From a virus: a stretch of 28,400 bases of DNA. The stretch lies in UHGV virus genome UHGV-0126577. One strand, written 5' to 3'. Below are positions 1-27,691 of this stretch, piece after piece (positions within the stretch are counted from its first letter, which is position 1; each line of letters starts with the position of its first letter). The translations under genes and the position numbers were made by a program. The notes beneath the pieces were generated by a model that ran no database searches, was not told the origin of the DNA, and was given only the letters and a program-made list of their open reading frames with translations.

Positions 1-403
1 CCGGCAACGCCTTTTTAGCTTTGCGTGGGTTAACCACATGGCCTTTAGTCCAGTACTCGTAGAGCACATCGTCACACTCTTCCTGATACTGGATTACCTT
101 GTCGCGGATTTCAGGGCGGACTTTGTTAGGGCTGATGGTTTGCAACCAGCCAGCAAGTTTGCGAAGTGCCAAACAAATAATCTCACGGCGCTGTTCATCC
201 CCAGGAAGCTGCATTGTGATTTTCACAATGCAGGTTTTAAACCGCTGCTTCATTTTCGTAAACTGTGAAGCCCAATCCATACCCATGCCTTCAACGATAG
301 GTTTCATTGGGGTGTACGGTTCTCCGTTGTGATTGACAACATAAAGTTCTGCGCCGTGGAATGGCACGTTGATAGTAGATACCGCTGTTGCTATACTCGT
401 CAT
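1..403 (-). CDS. Phage antirepressor-like protein (Ant-like), N-terminal part; start at 403, 3' end beyond the window
   Basis: Minus-strand frame open from the ATG at 403-401 to position 1 (MTSIATAVSTINVPFHGAELYVVNHNGEPYTPMKPIVEGMGMDW...). Not in the ORF track because no stop falls in the window. Sits downstream of the Arc-like gene as ant does in P22 immI. Family assignment is from memory of Ant/Bro-N-type N-termini. Confidence 0.55.
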   Translation of the reverse strand, partial: MTSIATAVSTINVPFHGAELYVVNHNGEPYTPMKPIVEGMGMDWASQFTKMKQRFKTCIVKITMQLPGDEQRREIICLALRKLAGWLQTISPNKVRPEIRDKVIQYQEECDDVLYEYWTKGHVVNPRKAKKALP

Positions 404-475
404 GTCGTTAATTCCTATACGTAGTTTTACGATACTGAAGCCCTGACGGTCTGGCCACCGTTGGGCTTCGCTGTT

Positions 476-643
476 TTATGCCACGCTATTCTTCTCACCA
501 GTGAGTCCATACACTTTCCTCAGCTGATAGATAATCTCTGTATTGAACTTTCGGCATTCTTTTTCGCCATTTCTTTCAATAGCTAACTTCACATCGTCCG
601 GAAAACGAACCCGTCGTTGACACATCTCTTTTGCTTTTTGCAT
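476..643 (-). CDS. Arc-like ribbon-helix-helix repressor (55 aa)
   Basis: The ORF 476..679 is trimmed to the internal ATG at 643-641, which is preceded by AAGGAG with a 7-nt spacer. Product MQKAKEMCQRRVRFPDDVKLAIERNGEKECRKFNTEIIYQLRKVY... has an RHH-like beta-strand/helix pattern and lies between the mnt-like and ant-like genes. Confidence 0.6.
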   Translation of the reverse strand: MQKAKEMCQRRVRFPDDVKLAIERNGEKECRKFNTEIIYQLRKVYGLTGEKNSVA

Positions 644-763
644 TTCATATCTCCTTAGCCCCACCGTGGGGCAAAACAATTGTCACACCGTGCGTCATTG
701 ATGTCAAGCACACGGTGAGGCATACTTCAATCATTGCAAGTAACTCAATATTTGGTGAAGAAC
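644..763. promoter_or_regulatory. Divergent, overlapping promoter/operator region (Pant-like on minus, Pmnt-like on plus)
   Basis: Minus strand: perfect -35 TTGACA (complement of 702-707), 17-nt spacer, -10 GACAAT (complement of 679-684). Plus strand: -35 TTGATG 698-703, 17-nt spacer, -10 CATACT 721-726. Heptamer CACCGTG at 662-668 and 686-692 and its reverse complement CACGGTG at 711-717. GC-rich inverted repeat GCCCCA-CCG-TGGGGC at 658-672, just upstream of the Arc-like SD. Confidence 0.45.
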
Positions 764-1195
764 ATGAGCAGAGAAGATCCACAACTAAGGATCAGACTTC
801 CCGTTGAAGTAAAAGAAAAAATAGAAATTTCTGCAAAAGCCAATAAGCGATCAATGAACGCTGAAATAGTACAACGTCTTGACACCAGCTTTCTGAAAGA
901 TATTCATGAAGATGACGTAATTTCTGCTTATGAAGCAAAAATTATTGCAAACAATGCACGGCATGAAATATCAAATATTATTTTCAAAAGAACTTTTAAT
1001 GAAATCAATAAAAAAATAACACTTGGACATACAAGTTTTTATATAAACCTTAATGACCTTGAACTGGAATCACTTGCAGATAATGATTACCAGATCATCT
1101 TTGAAAAAACATTTAATAAGCTCAATGAACTAGGTTACATCATCTGTGAAAACTCATGGGATGCAGATGGTTTTGGAATTGAAATACCTGAATAG
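764..1195 (+). CDS. Mnt-like ribbon-helix-helix repressor with an extended AT-rich C-terminal domain (143 aa)
   Basis: The ORF 734..1195 is trimmed to the ATG at 764. N-terminus MSREDPQLRIRLPVEVKEKIEISAKANKRSMNAEIVQRLDTSF matches the Arc/Mnt RHH pattern (P22 Mnt has RMPMEVREKL...GRSMNSELLQIV). The C-terminal ~95 aa are encoded by markedly AT-rich DNA. Confidence 0.6.
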   Translation: MSREDPQLRIRLPVEVKEKIEISAKANKRSMNAEIVQRLDTSFLKDIHEDDVISAYEAKIIANNARHEISNIIFKRTFNEINKKITLGHTSFYINLNDLELESLADNDYQIIFEKTFNKLNELGYIICENSWDADGFGIEIPE

Positions 1196-1285
1196 GAAGA
1201 ACAAAAGGCGTGTACATATTACACGTCTTTAATACAATTGAAAAACGCCACATTACTGATGTATGTTACAACAAGGAGCGATATT

Positions 1286-1849
1286 TTGAAAACCATATCT
1301 ATATTAAAGGTTGCATTAGGCGTCGCTATTATTTTGACTCTCTCAATATTGTTTTATTTTTACCACAAAAAAACTGCTATTGCTCTTGATGGTCACGCGG
1401 CAAACTCATTTTTCTCAGAGTACATAGTGCCGCTATCAGGAAGCGGTATAACAAATAAATATACTGACTATGACATCAAATATGGAATTGATGATGGGGA
1501 GACTATTGCATTACATGTAATCATTAAAAACCTAATGACAGTAAATAAAAATACAGACTTCAACGATAAAAATACAATACATCACAACAACAGCAAAACA
1601 TTAATTTCTTATAGTAGCAACATCTATACGGATAAATACCTAAAATACATCTCAGAAGATACAATAAAAGCAACCAGCGAAAAGTTAAAAAACATATATT
1701 GTGCATCCGGCAGTTTTCACAAATTATCGCCGCAAGAGCGTTTATTCTACGAAGCAAGAAAACAACGTAAGTCAATAATATTACATTATTATGCTGATTC
1801 AGGGGAGTCACTCATATTTAATATTGGGGTTTCCCCTGAATCATGCTAA
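1286..1849 (+). CDS. Membrane-anchored orphan protein (cargo/moron; candidate superinfection-exclusion-type function)
   Basis: Track ORF is 1238..1849. The in-frame TTG at 1286 is preceded by AAGGAG (1273-1278, 7-nt spacer) and gives an N-terminus KTISILKVALGVAIILTLSILFYFY typical of a signal-anchor. The ATG at 1238 lies within a candidate -35 (TTGAAA 1238-1243), so the start is uncertain. Very AT-rich compared with neighbours. Occupies the position of sieA in P22. Confidence 0.5.
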   Translation: MKTISILKVALGVAIILTLSILFYFYHKKTAIALDGHAANSFFSEYIVPLSGSGITNKYTDYDIKYGIDDGETIALHVIIKNLMTVNKNTDFNDKNTIHHNNSKTLISYSSNIYTDKYLKYISEDTIKATSEKLKNIYCASGSFHKLSPQERLFYEARKQRKSIILHYYADSGESLIFNIGVSPESC

Positions 1850-1860
1850 AGGCGTTTAAC

Positions 1861-4800
1861 TCACCGCATCACCGGATCCACCTGGTTTATTAGTGGCGCA
1901 ATCCAGAACAGGTTATTGCCTGGTATCAGGGTTCGGACATTATGCACAATACGATCACCGGCATCACCATTCAACACTCCTGCGGTCACATCAATGATGC
2001 TATCCGCAAGACCAAATGACGGTCCGAATAGAGATCCTACGAATCCACGACTGGCATACCTAGACTGTGTGCCAGTGCCAAATAAAGCCCCCAGCCCAAC
2101 AGCACCACCAGTAGCCTTTTCAGCCATGTTGTTATATTCCATCAATGGCCCAAGAATACCGGATCTATCTATACCCTCAAGCACCAGCTTCTCTGGTGAC
2201 CAGTCAACATTTTTCCCTTTCGATGCTTCTTTTAGCGCATAGACCAGTGAGCCAAGAGCAATCTGAAATGCAGTGCCATAATAAAATTGCGCAGTTCCTT
2301 CCTGTAACCCACCAAGTAGCGCACGGTTGTATGAAGCCGTTGTGAATGATTTAAACTGAAATATCGTTCGCCCCATTGGAGTACTCGCCCATAAAGGTGT
2401 GTCACCAATACCGGGGGTGATGATAGTGTTATTAACGTCTTTCAGAACCGCTGACTGGAATACTCCGGCAACGTACTGATCGTCCCATTTATCAAAGTTA
2501 CCAATGTGCCATCCCTCAATTACCTCACCATGTTTCTCGAACTCACTGCGAATACGCGCAGCCATATTGTCGTTGATACCGAGTTTTGCCATGCGACGTG
2601 CAGAAAACGCACCAGACAAAATACCGTCTGACGTGAGCATTCCGTTCATGGATTTGTTTATGTCATTAAATCGATCCATGAGTGTCAGCTTGCCGAAGGC
2701 ATCAGTAATTCGCTCCATTCCTGCTTCGACTGCTGTTGTCCTGGAAGAACTGTCAACAAGATCACCAATTGCACGAGAACGTGAATGCAGTACAGCTTCC
2801 AATCCAATCCCCATCTTCAACATCTCTTCTTTGCTGGCCTTAAATGCCGGTGATTGGGATATCTGAGAAGCATAGCCTTTCATGGTGTTACGGAAACCAT
2901 TAACCATAACCCCTCTGGCCAGATCTGGAATAGCTGATACTGTCATTCCACCGAGTTTGGTCGTGAAGTTCACATCCCGCAGAAAAGCGCCAGCACGAAC
3001 AAAAAACGAAGACGGATCATCAGGCATACCATATGTACCAACAAGACGATCGCGTAATGCTGTTATGTCTCTGAGATCATTTGCTCTTGATTTTGAAAGT
3101 CTGGACTGTTCTTTCCGTAATTCCTTTTCGTACTTTCGCATTAATGAATCGAGTTTACCCTGAGGAACAACTTCACCATTGCTCTCATAACGTGCTTTCA
3201 GATTTGCCACACTTTCGTCATATTTCGCCTTTATTTTTTCAGGCACTTCCCGTAACAGACTGTCATATTCGTCCTCAATTAATTGCAGACGCTCAGTCAT
3301 AGTTCGTTTACCAAATGTTCTCGTCAACTCAATTTCTGCTGCCGCTTCACGGATATGACGTTGCAGCACGTAATTCACATCACTTTCAAGATAATCCCTG
3401 ATAAGACTATCAGGAACATTTAATGTTCTTTCTTTCGTACTACCTGCGGCTTTTACAGAAAATACGCTGACAAAATCCTGTGGAACCTTAGCACCAGTAA
3501 TTTTATTAATTACGATATCCGCTGCAATTTCAGCATCCTCAGGATCCAGTGTTTTATTTCCTCTCGACCACCAGTCAACCAAAATACGTCGAAATTTATC
3601 GCGTTCACTGATTATTTTTCCAACTTTATATATACGTGGAAAATAGCTTGCCTGGCCTAATGCTTTCAGTTCTTCATCTGGCGGTAATAAACCAAGCTTT
3701 TGCATTTCAACCTTCACCCGATTTAATACAGTTCGCATCGCCTGCGCCGTTTCCTGAACAACAGGATTAGCATGCACATCACCGCTTCGCATAGCATTCC
3801 CAACCTGCTGACGAAATGAATCAAAACTCATGTCGCCACCATCAGCTTTATACTTTGCGTATGCCTGTTTATTTCCGACAACAACAGCAGCTTCTTCACG
3901 CTGCCATCCACGTGTACGGGTTTCTACAGCTACCGGTGTTTCAATCCCCCTTTCATTTCCTTTAAGGGTGAAATTATTTTCGGCTAACTCCAGCGTTGTT
4001 TTTCGCACTGTCTTGGACGGAGACTCCATTAACCTTGTCAAAGGAGTAAGATAGCTCCCTGCTTTCCATGCAGCCTTTCCAACCCACCCACCGGAAACAG
4101 GGGTTAAATCATCCAGAGTCGCTGTATCAATTTTCATAGCACCAACACTACCACCATCAGAAAGCGAAGCGGCAGCCCTGTCAGTCGCTGATGTAATGCT
4201 CATATTATCAAGAGCATCAGCAACCTCACGTGTGGCTGCAGCCCGGACGGATGGCGAAAGCGCAACACCAGCACTGGCAAACACGCCGCTCATCATCGCA
4301 CCCGCTGCAACGTGAGCGGCACTTTCACCCCATGAGCGTGTTATTTGCTGATTATTCAGCACAACCTCGCTTAATGCTGTACCGGCAGCACCAATCGCAA
4401 TCTGTGAGCCAATACGCGCCAGTGCCCCTCCTTGAGCACCGGGGATAAACATTGACGCAACAGTAACCGGATCCATTCCCGCAGCAATACTGGCAAGAGT
4501 TCCAACTACGCCAGCATCAGACAATAAACGTCTGTCTTCATTTTCATCATCTATCTGCTGCTTAATCCACGCCGTTTCCTCTGGCGATCGGGAATCTGCA
4601 AATTTCGCCCCCCAGTATTCATAACCGTGCAACTCATTTTTATCAGCATATGGGTTATAACCTTCGACCAGTTCAAACTGTCTGGCTGGTCGGAAAAAAC
4701 CAGCCAGAATATTGTTCTGTCGCATTGCAGCCCCCCATACGGAAGGCTCCGGTGGCAATGGCTCAGGATTAGCCCCTTCCGGAAGGGCAACATCAAACCC

Positions 4801-8622: not shown

Positions 8623-11093
8623 CAGAATCCCCCAACAGTAAGGCGAGGAATAACGGCAAGAACAGACAGCGGCAACGGATCAAGCTGACGGATTTTTACA
8701 CGTCCGTTTTTGCCCCAGTTACTGTCCAGTTTCACTTCTACTTTTCCGGTAGCATCATCAACAGGATCATCGTAGAACTCGAATTCACGCTGTGGATATT
8801 CGTACCATTTACCGCCGGGCGTAGTCGCCCAGATGCCGCGACTGGCATTCACAACCAGAGTAACGGAGGGGATCACCTGTTTTTTGTCCAGCAGCGTTTC
8901 CTGTCCGTTAATGTTGATATCCAGTGTTTCGAATTCAGCAGTTATTGGCAGGCCGATGTGCACAACAGCCCCAGGTGATTCCAGCGTGACGGCACCTCCG
9001 GAAACCACTTTCTGTGGTTCCACGTTCGCATCAGAGAGAATGTTTACGGTCTGGCCTTCAAGATGAGACAGGCCTCCAAATGTCCGGCGCGCCATCTGCC
9101 AGTTCGTGGTGGCCACATTCCTGAGGGATGGCGGGACGTTCCTGTTAGCACGAACCACTACAGCGGTGTTGCTGGTTACAGAAATAATGTCGCAACGTAA
9201 TTCTTTTGACACCTCATCGCCAGTATCAGGATCAGTTCCGGTATAAGGGAACTGTAGTTGCGCGCCGACATCACTACTGGTGAAGTACGCACCACCAGAA
9301 ACACTGATTGTATATTCCGCGCGGTAATCCCATTCGCCAGAACCACCAGTGATGATCATCGTTCTGTCAGACGTATTTCTTCCATCATAGCTAAGGCCAG
9401 AATCAACAAAGAAAGCATCTTCATCGCTGGTAAATAAACGGCTGGACAGTCGCTCGATGTATCTCACTGTTTGCCCGTTAACGGTTCGGTTAATGACGAA
9501 ATACACCGCATCTTCATTGCCTTCGCTGATACTGCATGTGCTTTCATATTTTCCGGTACTGGACTGTGGTGCCCATGCAAAAACCTGTTGATCACGCAAA
9601 TAGGTCATCACCAGTAATTTACCGTCATCACGAATGCAGAAGGCGCTGGAGTAAGGGACTATCGAGAAGCACCAGTCAACAATGCTGTGCTTCTGAAAAA
9701 GATGATTGGCAAGGATGGTCAGGTCGTTCCCCTGATAGCCGTCAACATCGAATGAGTAGGCCAGATCACGGACAACGCTGCCTTTCTCCTGGACGAACAG
9801 AGCAATATTCGCCACGGCAATTGGCGGGACGTTGCTTGAGCCATTTGATCCCTGAGAGCTGAATGCAAATGATGATGGGGTTAACACTTTGTTCTGGTCG
9901 CCGGTGATGACGTACTCACCTCCGGAAGTCAGCGCCACCAGAGAACCAACATCAATCAGGTGGCGGATCTCATTAACCTGACGTCCGGCATAGGTGTAGA
10001 TAATTCTGTCGTCATCCTGCGTAGGATTGCTTTTGCCAAAATCCTTATAATCCCCGGTACGGCTGGCCCAGATAGTCTGAGGAAACGCAGTCGATGCGGC
10101 GAAGTAAAGACGTTGTTGATAATAAACAACAGTGCCAGGATAACCATTAACACTGTTCCAGGCATATTTAGCCCATTTATAGCTGGCATTATCCTCGCCA
10201 ACTACCTGCGAAGGGATATAGGAAATCACCTCGGCAGTTGCAGTAGTTCCATTTGCAGCAGAGATACGGGCAATGCCAAAACCACTGTGCAGATACTCCC
10301 ACTCAATGCCGGTATCATCATCACCGGATCCGCCCCAGCCATCCCATGATGTGCCTTCTGTATGCGAAGGGCGCAAAGTGCCTGTTTTGCCTACTGTAAC
10401 GGCGCGATAGTAGTTACTGTCTGCACGGCGAATATCGCCAATTGACGTACTCTTACTGGTTTCCCATACCGGCACAGAATCCACTGCAGGCTGTTCCAGA
10501 TAGAACAATTTGCCTACCTGCTCCGCGCCAAAAATAGAGGCGCTTGCCGTTAACGTAATTGTCCCGGTGCTGGCGCTGGCATAAACCGTCACTGACTCGT
10601 CAATATTGATATCTTCAAATGGTCCGTTCTTCGTTACCACATCAACCAGTTGCCAGTTGTCATGCGCATAGCGACGCAACTCTTTCGGCGGGTATGCCGG
10701 ATGAACAAGCGTAAGCACGTCGGCGCTTTGCGTGAATTTAATTCGGAACAGATCGGCTTCAGTATATGGCGTGGAAATTTCATAAATAACATTGCTGCTG
10801 TTCAGCACCAACGCACCATCTTTGATAACGCGCATGTACTGGTGTCCGAACTCCAGAGCATAAGTCTGAACCGTCGAGAACTGGAACGGGATCAGGCGGC
10901 ATTTCCGATTTGGGTATTTGGCGGCACCGACAAAACGCGTACCAGGTCGATTCTCAACTCCGCCATACTGCCGCACGATAAAGTTATCGCACTTGCGCAA
11001 TGCCACCTGGTACTTCGCCATGTCAATACGACCGTACAACGACGGTCCAATCTCACCACCGGCAAAGCTGGGCTGGATCCAACTGATAGCCAT
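8622..11093 (-). CDS. Tail tubular protein B-like (T7 gp12-like), 823 aa
   Basis: N-terminus MAISWIQPSFAGGEIGPSLYGRID... resembles the T7 gp12 N-terminus (MALISQSIKNLKGGISQQPDIL...). Size and position after the gp11-like gene fit. Confidence 0.6.
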   Translation of the reverse strand: MAISWIQPSFAGGEIGPSLYGRIDMAKYQVALRKCDNFIVRQYGGVENRPGTRFVGAAKYPNRKCRLIPFQFSTVQTYALEFGHQYMRVIKDGALVLNSSNVIYEISTPYTEADLFRIKFTQSADVLTLVHPAYPPKELRRYAHDNWQLVDVVTKNGPFEDINIDESVTVYASASTGTITLTASASIFGAEQVGKLFYLEQPAVDSVPVWETSKSTSIGDIRRADSNYYRAVTVGKTGTLRPSHTEGTSWDGWGGSGDDDTGIEWEYLHSGFGIARISAANGTTATAEVISYIPSQVVGEDNASYKWAKYAWNSVNGYPGTVVYYQQRLYFAASTAFPQTIWASRTGDYKDFGKSNPTQDDDRIIYTYAGRQVNEIRHLIDVGSLVALTSGGEYVITGDQNKVLTPSSFAFSSQGSNGSSNVPPIAVANIALFVQEKGSVVRDLAYSFDVDGYQGNDLTILANHLFQKHSIVDWCFSIVPYSSAFCIRDDGKLLVMTYLRDQQVFAWAPQSSTGKYESTCSISEGNEDAVYFVINRTVNGQTVRYIERLSSRLFTSDEDAFFVDSGLSYDGRNTSDRTMIITGGSGEWDYRAEYTISVSGGAYFTSSDVGAQLQFPYTGTDPDTGDEVSKELRCDIISVTSNTAVVVRANRNVPPSLRNVATTNWQMARRTFGGLSHLEGQTVNILSDANVEPQKVVSGGAVTLESPGAVVHIGLPITAEFETLDININGQETLLDKKQVIPSVTLVVNASRGIWATTPGGKWYEYPQREFEFYDDPVDDATGKVEVKLDSNWGKNGRVKIRQLDPLPLSVLAVIPRLTVGGF

Positions 11094-11698
11094 CAGGACA
11101 ACCTCGCAATGGTAAACTCGTCAACCGGTGGCTGTGGTTCCTGTGATTCATTCTGGCTATGCGAGCCAGCACTAAGAATCACGCGATTGTACATATTGAG
11201 GGCAAACGTACCGAGGTCTGCATTCCCAGTCAGCGCCATGTTAATAGCTGCCGCAAGACGCCAGGCCAACGCCTCCATAAAAATGGCATCAAACATGTTC
11301 ACATCTGTAACGCGAGATACATACTTGAGCCATGCCTGCGGCTGGTCTGTGTAGATCAACTTTCCTGTTCCGTTGGTGTCTGCACCAACTTCGTACTGAA
11401 CGCGCATTGCTGCTGTTGGATTGCGTACACCAGGAAGCATAATTTCAGTAATGCGCAGACAATCGGACGGGTACTGGTACGCATATTCCCAGTCAGGCGG
11501 TGGATTGCTCGTATCTGCAAGCGCCACGCGTTTGGTAGCAAAGTTCCAGTCAAAATCAGAAAGCACAGCATCACGGCAGGCCTCAAAGTGCAGCGAACAT
11601 TCCCCCGCTTCCTTGCTGGCTTCCGTCAGGCTGTTAATACTGCGGCTGTTGCCAATATTGGACAGCGCACGATTGCAGATCTCTACTACAGAGGCCAT
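11093..11698 (-). CDS. Tail tubular protein A-like (T7 gp11-like), 201 aa
   Basis: Size and position match. N-terminal ...NRALSNIGNSRSINSLTEAS resembles the gp11 motif (...NDILASIGEPPVSTLEGD). SD AGGAG upstream. Confidence 0.55.
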   Translation of the reverse strand: MASVVEICNRALSNIGNSRSINSLTEASKEAGECSLHFEACRDAVLSDFDWNFATKRVALADTSNPPPDWEYAYQYPSDCLRITEIMLPGVRNPTAAMRVQYEVGADTNGTGKLIYTDQPQAWLKYVSRVTDVNMFDAIFMEALAWRLAAAINMALTGNADLGTFALNMYNRVILSAGSHSQNESQEPQPPVDEFTIARLS

Positions 11699-11719
11699 AA
11701 GTTTCTATACTCCTGCAAT

Positions 11720-11740
11720 AAAGGGGCCGAAGCCCCTTGT
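11720..11740 (-). terminator. Rho-independent terminator-like hairpin after the capsid gene block
   Basis: AGGGGC-cgaa-GCCCCT stem-loop followed by a T-rich run on the minus strand. Lies between the stop at 11755 and the gp11-like start at 11698. Confidence 0.45.
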
Positions 11741-11754
11741 CTGATTCGCGAGGC

Positions 11755-12090
11755 TTACACGCCCAGTTCTTTACGCTTATCTGCGATCTTCTCGCGTAGC
11801 GTTTCGGCTTTGGCGTTATGGTGTGGCTTCTCGTTAAAGAGCAATTCGTACTCTTCACGGAGCTTATCCAGTTCACCATCATCTGACACATCGTTGATGA
11901 TTTTGGTGCTGGTTGCTGCCATTGACACCTTTCCTGCAACTTTTGCTTTTGCCTGTCTGGCTGCATCGTTAACAGGTTCCAGTGCGCTACCAGGCTCACC
12001 TTCGTATTCGATTTCTGCCCCCTCCGGCCACAGAGTGTTATGGATATGAGAGAGGCGCAGAACGCGGTATCTTGGTTTCTCACCTGACAT
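11755..12090 (-). CDS. Small virion-associated protein (111 aa), hypothetical
   Basis: The ORF 11755..12099 begins at a GTG that abuts the SD. The ATG at 12090 has AAGGTGA 5 nt upstream. Charged, helical-looking C-terminus. Confidence 0.5.
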   Translation of the reverse strand: MSGEKPRYRVLRLSHIHNTLWPEGAEIEYEGEPGSALEPVNDAARQAKAKVAGKVSMAATSTKIINDVSDDGELDKLREEYELLFNEKPHHNAKAETLREKIADKRKELGV

Positions 12091-12100
12091 CGATATCACC

Positions 12101-12538
12101 TTAACCAGTTACTTTTGAGCGGATCGGGTACGGCGTATTGGCATCAACATCCAGACTGATACCCGCAGTGAATTTGCCAGCCGTTAGTGGGCCAGTTGCG
12201 ACGGAGTAGTTAACACGCAGATATCGCTGAACACCGGCAGGCACCTTTGCAGAAACAACTCGTTTACCTGCTGTCAGGGCGGTCTTTGCCAGTGCGCCAC
12301 TATCATAAATAGTGGTCCATGAGCTGTTATTCTCACTCGTCTGCAACTGGATGTTTACAGTTGCATCACCGCTTGCTGCGGCGGCTGCGTTAACCAGCAC
12401 CCAAAACTCAAGCGGGTAACCCACGCCGATATCACGACGTTTTCCGTCAATTGGACCGAGATCGATTACGTCAGTAGAAGCCGCGGTATCAGTTACCGCC
12501 TCTGCTTCGGAGAACATCAACAGTTTGTCGGTGATCAT
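12101..12538 (-). CDS. Putative minor capsid/decoration protein (145 aa)
   Basis: Lies directly downstream of the major capsid gene. Thr/Ala/Gly-rich, beta-rich-looking sequence. SD GGAG upstream. Confidence 0.45.
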   Translation of the reverse strand: MITDKLLMFSEAEAVTDTAASTDVIDLGPIDGKRRDIGVGYPLEFWVLVNAAAAASGDATVNIQLQTSENNSSWTTIYDSGALAKTALTAGKRVVSAKVPAGVQRYLRVNYSVATGPLTAGKFTAGISLDVDANTPYPIRSKVTG

Positions 12539-12589
12539 CTTCTTTCTCCATTAGTGGGTCTGTTACGACCCACAGGTTAATAACAGGCG

Positions 12590-25240: not shown

Positions 25241-25251
25241 GAATAGATATG

Positions 25252-25273
25252 AAAAGACCGCCGGGTGGCGGTC
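25252..25273 (-). terminator. tR1-like terminator hairpin downstream of the cro-like gene
   Basis: GACCGCC-gggt-GGCGGTC stem with a T-run on the minus strand, 23 nt after the cro-like stop. Confidence 0.45.
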
Positions 25274-25295
25274 TACAGAGGGTTGTAGCTGGATA

Positions 25296-25526
25296 TCATG
25301 AGTAGAAGAAGTATGCCAGTTCTGCTTTTGAGCGCAGCCATTGTCTTGTTTTACAGGCTTTAAAAAGCCCATTCATCAATACTTTACCTGGCATTTTTCG
25401 CTTACCTGTTAAGTGAGTCTGGATATAGTGACTCGTCGTTCCGGCTTCCTGTGCGAAGGCTTCACGCTCATCCGGAGTAAGTGCAAGCCAGTGCTTTTTG
25501 AAATCGAAATGTCCGTTATCGCTCAT
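25296..25526 (-). CDS. Cro-like HTH regulator (76 aa)
   Basis: First gene of the minus-strand early operon, divergent from the CI-like gene. Helix-turn-helix-like segment REAFAQEAGTTSHYIQTHLTGKRK. Confidence 0.55.
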   Translation of the reverse strand: MSDNGHFDFKKHWLALTPDEREAFAQEAGTTSHYIQTHLTGKRKMPGKVLMNGLFKACKTRQWLRSKAELAYFFYS

Positions 25527-25562
25527 AGCTATTGCCTGATATTTATTTCAGATAATAAATAT

Positions 25563-25625
25563 TCACCCATAAGGTAACAAAAATCAAGAATAGTTACCTA
25601 TGAGGTGCATTTACCTGTTGGGTAA
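25563..25625. promoter_or_regulatory. OR-like tripartite operator with divergent promoters
   Basis: Three palindromes: TCACCCATAAGGTAA 25563-25577, TTACCTATGAGGTGC 25594-25608, TTACCTGTTGGGTAA 25611-25625. Minus-strand promoter candidate: -35 TTGTTA, 17-nt spacer, -10 TATTAT, with the first operator in the spacer. Confidence 0.5.
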
Positions 25626-25680
25626 TATTGCTTTAAATTGAATCATCTACTGATTCATATATGAGGCGATTTTCCAGAAA

Positions 25681-26265
25681 ATGAAAAGTATCCAGGACGT
25701 CCGCAGGCAAAATCTCAACGACTTGATCGACCGTGAATTCAATGGTGTTCAGACGCGGATGGCTGAAAAACTTGGAACTCAGGCAAATCTGGTAAACCGC
25801 TGGGCTCTTGGCAAGAAGGTTATCGGCGACCAGGTTGCACGAAAAATTGAAGCTGCCGCCAATAAACCCCGTAACTGGCTTGATATCGATCGCTCGCTTT
25901 CTCAGGAAGGTTTTCAGCCTGTCGGCCCAAGCGACATTGGCCAGCTGGCGGCTCACAACCTGGAACGCTGGATGAGCGAAAGCCGCGACCTTTCAACACA
26001 GGGAAAACTTCACCGCGCATCCGGCGTAGCCCAGGTGACAATCAGCCGCCTATTAAACAATGAGGTCAGCGTTTCCATTTCCACCCTGGAGAATGTTGCA
26101 TCCGCATTCGGGCGTCACGGCTATGAATTACTGATTCACCCGCACGACCCTGCGACCATCAACTATGATCGCTCGCGCTACGCATTGTTACCCGAAACCG
26201 AGAAAGCAAAGATCGAAAGTTACATTGAATTTGTCATCAACCAGAACGAAAAAAACAAACAATAA
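25681..26265 (+). CDS. CI-like repressor with two HTH domains and no S24 peptidase domain (194 aa)
   Basis: XRE-type HTH at about aa 20-70 (...VQTRMAEKLGTQANLVNRWALGKKVIGDQVARKIEAAANKPRNWL...) and a second HTH-like segment at about aa 110-160. No Ser-Lys autocleavage domain by size or sequence. Divergent from the cro-like gene. Confidence 0.65.
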   Translation: MKSIQDVRRQNLNDLIDREFNGVQTRMAEKLGTQANLVNRWALGKKVIGDQVARKIEAAANKPRNWLDIDRSLSQEGFQPVGPSDIGQLAAHNLERWMSESRDLSTQGKLHRASGVAQVTISRLLNNEVSVSISTLENVASAFGRHGYELLIHPHDPATINYDRSRYALLPETEKAKIESYIEFVINQNEKNKQ

Positions 26266-26285
26266 AACCATATTTTTCAGTAAGT

Positions 26286-26309
26286 AAGCCGCCTTATGGC
26301 GGCTTTTTT
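26286..26309 (+). terminator. Rho-independent terminator after the CI-like gene
   Basis: AAGCCGCC-ttat-GGCGGCTT hairpin followed by TTTTTT. Confidence 0.7.
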
Positions 26310-26322
26310 ATTGCCTATTCGA

Positions 26323-26413
26323 TTACCTAACGGGTAATTTTTTTAACTCATATCTATTGACATCAAACCATATAAGCATAATTATTACCTTAACGGTAAC
26401 AGACCGAGGTAAC
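26323..26413 (+). promoter_or_regulatory. PL-like promoter with OL-like operators
   Basis: Operators TTACCTAACGGGTAA 26323-26337 and TTACCTTAACGGTAA 26385-26399, plus a half-site GAGGTAA at 26406-26412. Perfect -35 TTGACA at 26357-26362, 17-nt spacer, -10 AATTAT at 26380-26385. Confidence 0.5.
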
Positions 26414-26573: not shown

Positions 26574-26873
26574 ATGAACGTTAATCAGCAGAAAAATCTT
26601 CAAAAAATCATGCTGGCATTCGACAAGGACTACCGCCTGTCAGAACAGCTATATGACCGACAAGTTGAACTGATTGAGAGCATCCGACTTCATCAACTGT
26701 CCTCAACTTTCGACGTTGTAACAGGCAAAGGCGTTCGTCAGGAAGTGCTGGAGGCTGCTAAAGACAGCCCTGAGTTCGAAGAACTGATGGATGCCTATCG
26801 GCGAGAGGCAATGGCAATTATCGCCCGCTGGGATCTGGCGGATCAGCTTGATGGACAGAGGGACGCGGCATGA
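26574..26873 (+). CDS. Hypothetical protein (99 aa)
   Basis: The track ORF starts at 26559. The ATG at 26574 has GGAGGG 6 nt upstream. Its stop overlaps the exonuclease start (ATGA). Confidence 0.5.
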   Translation: MNVNQQKNLQKIMLAFDKDYRLSEQLYDRQVELIESIRLHQLSSTFDVVTGKGVRQEVLEAAKDSPEFEELMDAYRREAMAIIARWDLADQLDGQRDAA

Positions 26874-27691
26874 ATCCGGGAATTTATTTCGATATCAGCA
26901 ACGAAGACTACCACGCCGGTGACGGCGTGAGTAAGTCGCAACTGGACATGGTTGCCAAGAATCCGGCGCTTCTTAAATGGGTTCAGGCAGCACCAGAAGA
27001 CGAAGAGAAAAAGTCTGCACTGGATATGGGAACCGCATTGCACTGTCTGCTTCTGGAGCCTGGAGAGTTCGACAAACGCTTCATTGTTTCACCGAAATTC
27101 GATCGTCGGACGAAACAAGGTAAAGCTGACGAAGAGGCATTTCTTCGTGATGTGGCGGATATGGGGATTACGGTACTTGATGCCGAGCAGTGGCGGAAAC
27201 TGGAGCTGATGCGTGATAGCGCAATGGCTCACCCGGCGGCACGCTGGATGCTGGAAGCACCTGGTTACTGCGAAGCATCAATGTACTGGAACGATGAAGA
27301 TACTGGTGAGTTGTGCCGCATTCGTCCAGACAAATGGCTGAACGAGCACAACGTGATCATCGACGTGAAAAAGGTTGCAGATATGGACCGTTTTGCACGT
27401 CACATCGAGGAATTCCGCTACCACGTGCAGGACGCAATGTACCGCGAAGGCGCAATGAGGGTTACTGGTCAGCCGCATGGTTTTTTCTTTCTTGCCGTGA
27501 GCGAAAGCATTGATTGTGGTCGGTATCCGGTACGCGTGTTCGAGCTGGATGCGCCGGATGTCGATGCCGGGCACGCTCTGTTCCGCCGGGATCTGAATAC
27601 CTATCACGAATGCCGCATCAACGATGAGTGGGGCGGAGTGGAAATTATTAAACGCCCTGACTGGGCACGTAAACAGGATATGTACGTATGA
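26870..27691 (+). CDS. YqaJ/lambda-Exo-type recombination exonuclease (273 aa)
   Basis: PD-(D/E)XK-type core ...IRPDKW...IIDVKKV...EEFRYHVQDAMY... typical of YqaJ-like viral recombinases. Directly upstream of, and overlapping, the RecT-like gene. Confidence 0.75.
   Translation: MNPGIYFDISNEDYHAGDGVSKSQLDMVAKNPALLKWVQAAPEDEEKKSALDMGTALHCLLLEPGEFDKRFIVSPKFDRRTKQGKADEEAFLRDVADMGITVLDAEQWRKLELMRDSAMAHPAARWMLEAPGYCEASMYWNDEDTGELCRIRPDKWLNEHNVIIDVKKVADMDRFARHIEEFRYHVQDAMYREGAMRVTGQPHGFFFLAVSESIDCGRYPVRVFELDAPDVDAGHALFRRDLNTYHECRINDEWGGVEIIKRPDWARKQDMYV

Follow-up and report, generated by a model that had tools for sequence, protein, structure and literature searches.

The repressor (Rep) of Salmonella phage SPC32H is reportedly left uncleaved in the SOS response (abstract of Kim and Ryu, 2013), and its inactivation is said to fall to a small antirepressor (Ant) whose gene is repressed by LexA (Kim and Ryu, 2013; Kim et al., 2016). 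Here, we compare with this system the master lysogeny repressor gene, rep, of the virus genome UHGV-0126577, a stretch of 28,400 nt (the window) that is most of an Escherichia coli Uetakevirus (phiV10/epsilon15-like podophage) prophage. SPC32H Rep and Ant are known from crystal structures (PDB 5D50, 5D4Z), an Ant tetramer binding two Rep dimers and thereby breaking the Rep tetramer (PMC9638917), with the C-terminal ‘CAD’ of Rep forming a separate tetramerization and Ant-binding domain of p53-like TetDloop fold (PMC9986798). In Salmonella phages, the antirepressor Ant is under LexA control (PMC7380047). The same logic, namely a non-cleavable repressor and a distant LexA-repressed antirepressor, applies to Gifsy prophages and to Tum of coliphage 186 (PMC3121763), to which we found no sequence relationship, the Gifsy repressors being single-domain proteins of ~136 amino acids (aa). 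Our analysis suggests that an SPC32H-type Rep/Ant switch is the likely explanation of the window repressor, with an immI module of the phage P22 kind (mnt, arc, sar, ant) as a second input.

Over aa 1–190, window Rep aligned to residues 2–197 of the SPC32H repressor chain 5D50_A with 42% identity (E value 4e-42). It is also 100% identical to gp40 of phiV10, ORF21 of vB_EcoP_ZX5 (ZX5), and the corresponding proteins of phiv142-3, O157 typing phages 9 and 10, and others. These alignments place Rep in the SPC32H Rep family and identify it with the phiV10 and ZX5 repressor. Pfam matched HTH_3 in two stretches (best at aa 106–147; E value 1.2e-9) and gave a YdaS/Cro-type helix-turn-helix (HTH) signal near the N-terminus (aa 21–61). 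The DNA-binding domain at the N-terminus (DBD; aa 1–72) by itself matched 5D50_A at an E value of 1.6e-18, and its NLVNRW helix is invariant between the window and SPC32H proteins. By homology to SPC32H Rep, aa 89–149 would form a middle dimerization domain (MDD) rather than a second DNA reader, and aa 150–190 a CAD-like element for tetramerization and Ant docking (PMC9986798). The predicted architecture is thus a DBD, followed by an HTH_3-like dimerization domain and a CAD, the last ~45 residues not being HTH. The two HTH-like halves were also compared for signs of an internal duplication and had no detectable similarity. An AlphaFold2 model built from the single Rep sequence was unusable (mean pLDDT of 45) and was not used, a homolog crystal structure being available.

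Neither feature of the LexA/CI-type autocleavable class, i.e. an S24 peptidase domain and an Ala-Gly cleavage site, was found in Rep: Pfam returned no Peptidase_S24 match, and the protein contains no Ala-Gly or Cys-Gly dipeptide. Likewise, no LexA/S24-like sequence was detected in any frame of the window, using an approximate LexA query that makes this result a lead only. As the 5D50_A alignment spans aa 1–190, no space is left for a hidden peptidase domain, and given that both the S24 domain and the Ala-Gly site are missing, RecA-activated self-cleavage is not to be expected. A sequence-only reading of the window had described Rep as two HTH domains in tandem without a LexA/S24-type C-terminal domain, had deemed RecA-mediated self-cleavage unlikely, and had called the architecture uncommon. 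Its first statement holds for the missing peptidase domain, the Pfam search yielding the HTH_3 and N-terminal HTH signals and no cryptic peptidase, yet not for the C-terminus, where aa 150–190 are CAD-like. Its second agrees with our results, the full length of Rep being covered by the 5D50/5D4Z folds. Its third does not stand, since the architecture has been crystallized and occurs in ~10% of complete E. coli genomes. The phiV10 GenBank record had already annotated ‘two helix-turn-helix motifs’ for gp40.

The partner expected for such a repressor was traced in close relatives of the window, tblastn having found neither a small Ant nor a fused Ant domain in the window itself. In E. coli OkiPb01683, a prophage with 99.9% identity to window positions 1–1900 encodes an 85-aa small Ant that is 88% identical to SPC32H Ant. 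Its gene adjoins the tailspike gene behind the LexA box TACTGTATATTCATACAGT and lies ~3 kb left of the position matching the window start (OkiPb01683 coordinates 9029–9286). The ant gene of SPC32H (86 aa) also adjoins the tailspike gene, behind TACTGTATGTTTATACAGT, so that small Ant, LexA box, and tailspike neighbor are the same in SPC32H and in the near-identical prophages of the window. More generally, a small Ant with the LexA box TACTGTAT-N4-ATACAGT is present in OkiPb01683, TL-2011b, phiV10, ZX5, and SPC32H. Of 50,697 phage records, 36 have Rep and 35 a small Ant, the latter all falling within the former. The rep region is present in 566 of 5,426 complete E. coli genomes (~10%) and the box-plus-ant segment in 529. 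Going by these relatives, the source genome of the window presumably carries the small ant gene as well.

Putative binding sites for Rep were recognized as palindromes with the consensus TTACC-N5-GGTAA, three of which separate rep from a divergent cro-like gene (Table 1). The consensus is the same as in SPC32H, with spacings of 31 and 17 bp here vs. 30 and 17 bp there, a match that agrees with the NLVNRW helix being invariant between both DBDs. In total, the window holds seven perfect copies, where 0.02 would be expected, plus three copies with one mismatch, all of them intergenic and together marking the majority of the intergenic stretches. The dispersed copies sit upstream of both the terminase gene and the portal cluster, behind the P gene (as a 62-bp pair), and behind cro. 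Two window loci hold pairs at a distance of exactly 62 bp, and the pair of the PL-like control region, with the same spacing, is also found in phiV10, SPC32H, and TL-2011b. The promoter-like site of this region (26357–26385) would serve an exonuclease/RecT recombination operon downstream of the rep terminator. Where the palindromes lie and how they are spaced is conserved in phiV10, SPC32H, and TL-2011b despite a Rep identity of only 42%; this points to control of most phage transcription units, by Rep or another factor, possibly with looping.

In the mechanism we propose, the N-terminal HTH of Rep would read DNA, the HTH_3-like middle domain would dimerize, and the short C-terminal domain would both tetramerize and dock Ant. 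The Rep tetramer would bind the 15-bp palindromes, i.e. the triplet between rep and the cro-like gene and the 62-bp pair at the PL-like promoter, and keep the lytic genes off. Devoid of an S24 domain and an Ala-Gly site, Rep would not cleave itself upon RecA activation. The SOS signal would enter via LexA, the consensus box of which overlaps the promoter of the 85-aa ant beside the tailspike gene: once LexA is cleaved, Ant would be made and bind the Rep C-terminal domain, breaking the tetramer and releasing the DNA. The immI module would provide a second, SOS-independent input, silenced by Mnt in the lysogen, and its Ant would most likely act in trans at infection or superinfection to override Rep immunity, not as the induction trigger. 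In ZX5, neither free phage nor transcription of the lysis genes was left when ORF21, the identical Rep, was overexpressed, and overexpression of ORF4 reduced lysogens and lysogeny ~1000-fold (PMC9782041).

Several points weigh against this proposal. Details of the SPC32H mechanism are taken from secondary descriptions (PMC7380047, PMC9638917, PMC9986798), and the ZX5 repressor and anti-repressor data stem from overexpression only (PMC9782041). For this exact Rep, we infer escape from cleavage and Ant binding by homology, as well as binding to the TTACC-N5-GGTAA sites. The window includes neither the small ant gene nor the part of the immI ant that would code for the C-terminal domain, both being presumed for the source genome on the strength of its relatives. 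Lastly, window and SPC32H Rep share 42% identity (46% in the Ant-docking segment) vs. 88% for the Ants of the respective phages, an imbalance that is surprising between partners meant to bind each other specifically; Ant may be constrained by its own tetramer or recognize a small conserved surface of Rep.

At the left end of the window, the immI genes have the same order and orientation as in P22, and in window-type prophages the module is placed as in P22, with the ejection-protein genes on one side and the tailspike gene on the other. The ant product is 40% identical to P22 Ant over aa 1–214, the mnt-like product 32% identical to P22 Mnt (E value 3e-14) and 60 aa longer, and the arc-like product 33% identical to P22 Arc, although with a weak match (E value 4e-5). 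Promoter and terminator scans assigned sar a promoter-like site (369–397, plus strand) and a terminator hairpin (448–467). A Pant-like promoter (707–679, minus strand) has the palindrome 658–672 just downstream, which resembles the core of the P22 Mnt operator (Omnt, GGTCCACGGTGGACC), the common core being CCAC(C/G)GTGG, and the Mnt-like protein would be expected to bind there. No LexA box was found in this control region between arc and mnt. The module has a lower GC content and its own regulators, and the insertion is carried by only 34–41 of the ~530–566 E. coli genomes with Rep. Apart from the C-terminus of Ant, the window immI is thus of the P22 kind in every tested feature, yet it accompanies a resident repressor that is not of the cleavable C2/CI type. 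The window also provides an instance of a full-length sar between arc and ant in a phage that is not P22-like.

Adjoining mnt, a low-GC gene (~30–35%; 1238/1286–1849, plus strand) encodes a 187–203-aa protein with an N-terminal hydrophobic segment that matches only PHROG 8033, a family of unknown function. Its position is that of sieA in P22, but no similarity to SieA was found; a role in exclusion or as a moron is possible.

The exception at the Ant C-terminus became apparent from the full-length gene in near-identical prophages. The immI Ant of OkiPb01683 comprises 314 aa, of which residues 1–203 are nearly identical to Ant of CUS-3 and of the Stx2 phage 1717, the similarity ending abruptly after ARVPLEGE; the alignment with P22 Ant likewise stops at about residue 214. 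Where P22 Ant has its C-terminal third, aa 233–309 match the SPC32H Ant chain 5D50_E of the Rep–Ant co-crystal (E value 8e-14), with 42% identity to the small Ant of the same prophage and, for the C-terminal domain, 91% identity to that of ZX5 ORF4. Thus, the immI Ant of these prophages seems, by sequence comparison, to be a P22/CUS-3-type Ant whose tail was swapped for a Rep-binding domain. In the related Escherichia phage TL-2011b (NC_019445), which is of the same prophage type and harbors the same immI insertion (96.6% identity across window positions 1–1900; Rep 98.5% identical), the C-terminal 89 residues of the Ant gp42 are 100% identical to those of the OkiPb01683 chimera. The TL-2011b record offers annotation only, and the searchable literature yielded no work on the function or the domains of its Ant.

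A third gene with this domain lies between the small ant and immI of OkiPb01683 and encodes a Bro-N protein with the same Ant-like C-terminal domain, ZX5 ORF4 being the equivalent Bro-N::Ant protein. Free Ant, Bro-N fusion, and P22_AR_N fusion together occupy OkiPb01683 positions 9029–12403, ~0.6–3 kb left of the window start. A perfect Rep-type palindrome at position 9318, between the small ant and Bro-N::ant, hints at Rep-controlled positive feedback. A gene for a YafO-family toxin is also situated among the three Ant-domain genes. Free or fused, the Ant domain was seen only in Rep-bearing phages among the 50,697 records, and a search of 1.84 billion representative proteins returned only 60 matches, with AntA, Bro-N, Phage_pRha, and ORF6N as fused heads.

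Whether the TL-2011b-like sublineage directs three paralogous Ant domains against a single non-cleavable repressor is, in our view, an evenly balanced question. The three would be the 85-aa LexA-controlled protein, Bro-N::Ant behind a Rep-type operator, and P22_AR_N::Ant under Mnt/Arc/sar, the last having arisen by a swap of the C-terminal ‘specificity’ third. As the Ant-like C-terminal domain is homologous to the Rep-binding SPC32H Ant, an Ant–Rep interaction is plausible, and on this similarity the immI Ant probably targets the window Rep. Given a regulation as in P22, it is more likely an anti-immunity or superinfection device than an inducer, a role we infer. Alternatively, the module might be a passenger of horizontal transfer whose Ant acts not on this Rep but on CI/C2-type repressors of other prophages. 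This is the message one could take from its lower GC content, its own regulators, and the near-identity of the first 203 residues to Ants from CUS-3 and Stx phages, which have CI-like repressors. We regard this alternative as unlikely: a domain that, among the 50,697 records, is confined to Rep-bearing phages has taken the exact place of the C-terminal third, and the new C-terminus closely matches that of an active anti-repressor (ZX5 ORF4) from a phage with the identical Rep.

A different role for the same protein had been put forward by the sequence-only reading, in which an Ant-like gene under Arc/Mnt-like control at the other end of the window drives induction. Such a gene is indeed there, as attested by the ant 5′ part, the arc- and mnt-like genes, and sar. 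The module is complete, and the immI Ant of near-identical prophages carries a Rep-binding-type C-terminal domain. However, Mnt, a maintenance repressor, is not known to be SOS-sensitive, and its target region has no LexA box. In P22, moreover, induction can do without Ant, ant mutants still responding to SOS (PMC3121763, PMC7380047). Carriage points in the same direction, in that immI is rare among Rep-bearing genomes and the LexA-box small ant nearly universal (35 of 36 phage records), so that immI cannot be the general inducer of the family. Taking together the dispensability of P22 immI Ant, the missing LexA box, the few carriers, and the small Ant that tracks Rep, the SOS trigger is most likely the small Ant, and induction of this prophage by the Arc/Mnt-controlled, P22-type Ant is in our view quite improbable. 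Antirepressor-driven induction in general is unaffected by this, having been published for the homologous SPC32H Rep and being in line with the overexpression data on the identical Rep in ZX5 (PMC9782041). That RecA would inactivate Rep by stimulating self-cleavage at a cryptic catalytic site is hardly credible for a protein without S24 match or Ala-Gly/Cys-Gly site whose full length is explained by the non-peptidase folds of 5D50/5D4Z.

Table 1 Features of the immI module and of the rep immunity region, in window coordinates
Feature	Position	Strand	Evidence or remark
ant, 5′ part (134 codons), cut by the window edge	403..1	-	P22_AR_N, E value 3e-45
sar antisense RNA, overlapping the ribosome-binding region of ant	405..472	+	Rfam RF00262, full-length, 45.2 bits (gathering 43), E value 1.3e-7
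arc-like ribbon-helix-helix gene, first in the ant operon	476..643	-	PHROG Arc-like repressor, E value 3.4e-5
immI control region	655..722		palindrome GCCCCAC-C-GTGGGGC at 658-672; CACCGTG/CACGGTG copies at 686 and 711
mnt-like gene (143 aa), divergent from arc-ant	764..1195	+	Pfam Arc, E value 1.1e-14
Further operator-like palindromes	16573-87, 19719-33, 19737-51, 23219-33, 23281-95, 25226-40		intergenic
cro-like early gene, divergent from rep	25296..25526	-	phrog_35 transcriptional repressor, E value 5.6e-13
Three putative operator palindromes, consensus TTACC-N5-GGTAA	25563-77, 25594-608, 25611-25		between rep and the cro-like gene
rep, master lysogeny repressor of SPC32H-Rep type	25681..26265	+	ORF with ATG start, 194 aa
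Rep aa 1-72, N-terminal HTH domain (DBD)	25681..25896	+	53% identity to SPC32H Rep DBD
Rep aa 89-149, second HTH_3-like domain	25945..26127	+	34% identity to SPC32H Rep; Pfam HTH_3
Rep aa 150-190, predicted tetramerization and Ant-binding element (CAD/TetDloop-like)	26128..26250	+	aligned to 5D4Z/5D50, 46% identity
Terminator-like hairpin after rep	26286..26305	+	terminator annotated at the same place in phiV10
PL-like control region	26323..26399	+	perfect palindromes 26323-37 and 26385-99, 62 bp apart, flanking the promoter-like site 26357-26385

Overall, the window matches prophages of complete E. coli genomes at ~98% identity along ~90% of its length, and its immunity region (25200–26400) shares 96–99% identity with phiV10, ZX5, TL-2011b, and a dozen further E. 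coli phages. The gene order around rep is that of SPC32H, with the divergent cro-like gene (product ~75% identical to SPC32H_042) followed by DnaT-like/O and lambda-P-like replication genes. To the right of rep, an exonuclease VIII-like gene (26870–27691, plus strand) precedes a RecT gene that runs past the window end (28400). RecE and RecT are annotated as a single fusion in phiV10 but are two separate genes in TL-2011b and the window.

Other LexA box candidates in the window were considered and set aside. A CTG-N10-CAG match in the cro-like leader (25536–25551; CTGATATTTATTTCAG) is an unlikely box, having CTGA/TCAG instead of CTGT/ACAG and no counterpart in SPC32H. Matches to CTGT-N8-ACAG at 12560 and 17102 have GC-rich centers and are conserved in phiV10 and TL-2011b, with nothing else about them resembling an SOS box. 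The cro-like leader additionally contains a perfect 9-bp inverted repeat (25539–25562; ATATTTATT/AATAAATAT), likewise without a counterpart in SPC32H.

The repressor itself, its architecture, the missing autocleavage domain, and antirepressor-driven induction are already known, having been published for the SPC32H Rep family, to which window Rep is homologous over its full length while being only 42% identical. What the window lineage adds to SPC32H, which has neither, are Bro-N::Ant and P22_AR_N::Ant under Mnt/Arc/sar; phiV10 and ZX5, unlike the window, both lack the immI module. In the ZX5 paper, the small LexA-controlled ant and the SPC32H-Ant-like domain in ORF4 went unrecognized (PMC9782041). 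In the searchable literature, neither the chimeric Ant nor the arrangement of three Ant domains was found described, and the primary SPC32H papers might mention fused homologs.

The Rep/Ant switch resides in about one in ten complete E. coli genomes and in phages used for O157 typing or modifying the O antigen. Such prophages would respond to SOS through a LexA-controlled Ant and not through repressor cleavage, a point of importance for predicting their induction by SOS-inducing antibiotics and for phage engineering. The new point is the immI Ant chimera with its SPC32H-Ant-like, presumably Rep-docking tail. If confirmed, it would represent a natural experiment on the exchange of antirepressor specificity between unrelated podophage lineages and on anti-immunity warfare between prophages. 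The C-terminus of large phage antirepressors would then be an exchangeable, repressor-specific warhead, and immI phages could break the immunity of lysogens that have the same Rep and no Mnt, i.e. of prophages in ~10% of complete E. coli genomes.

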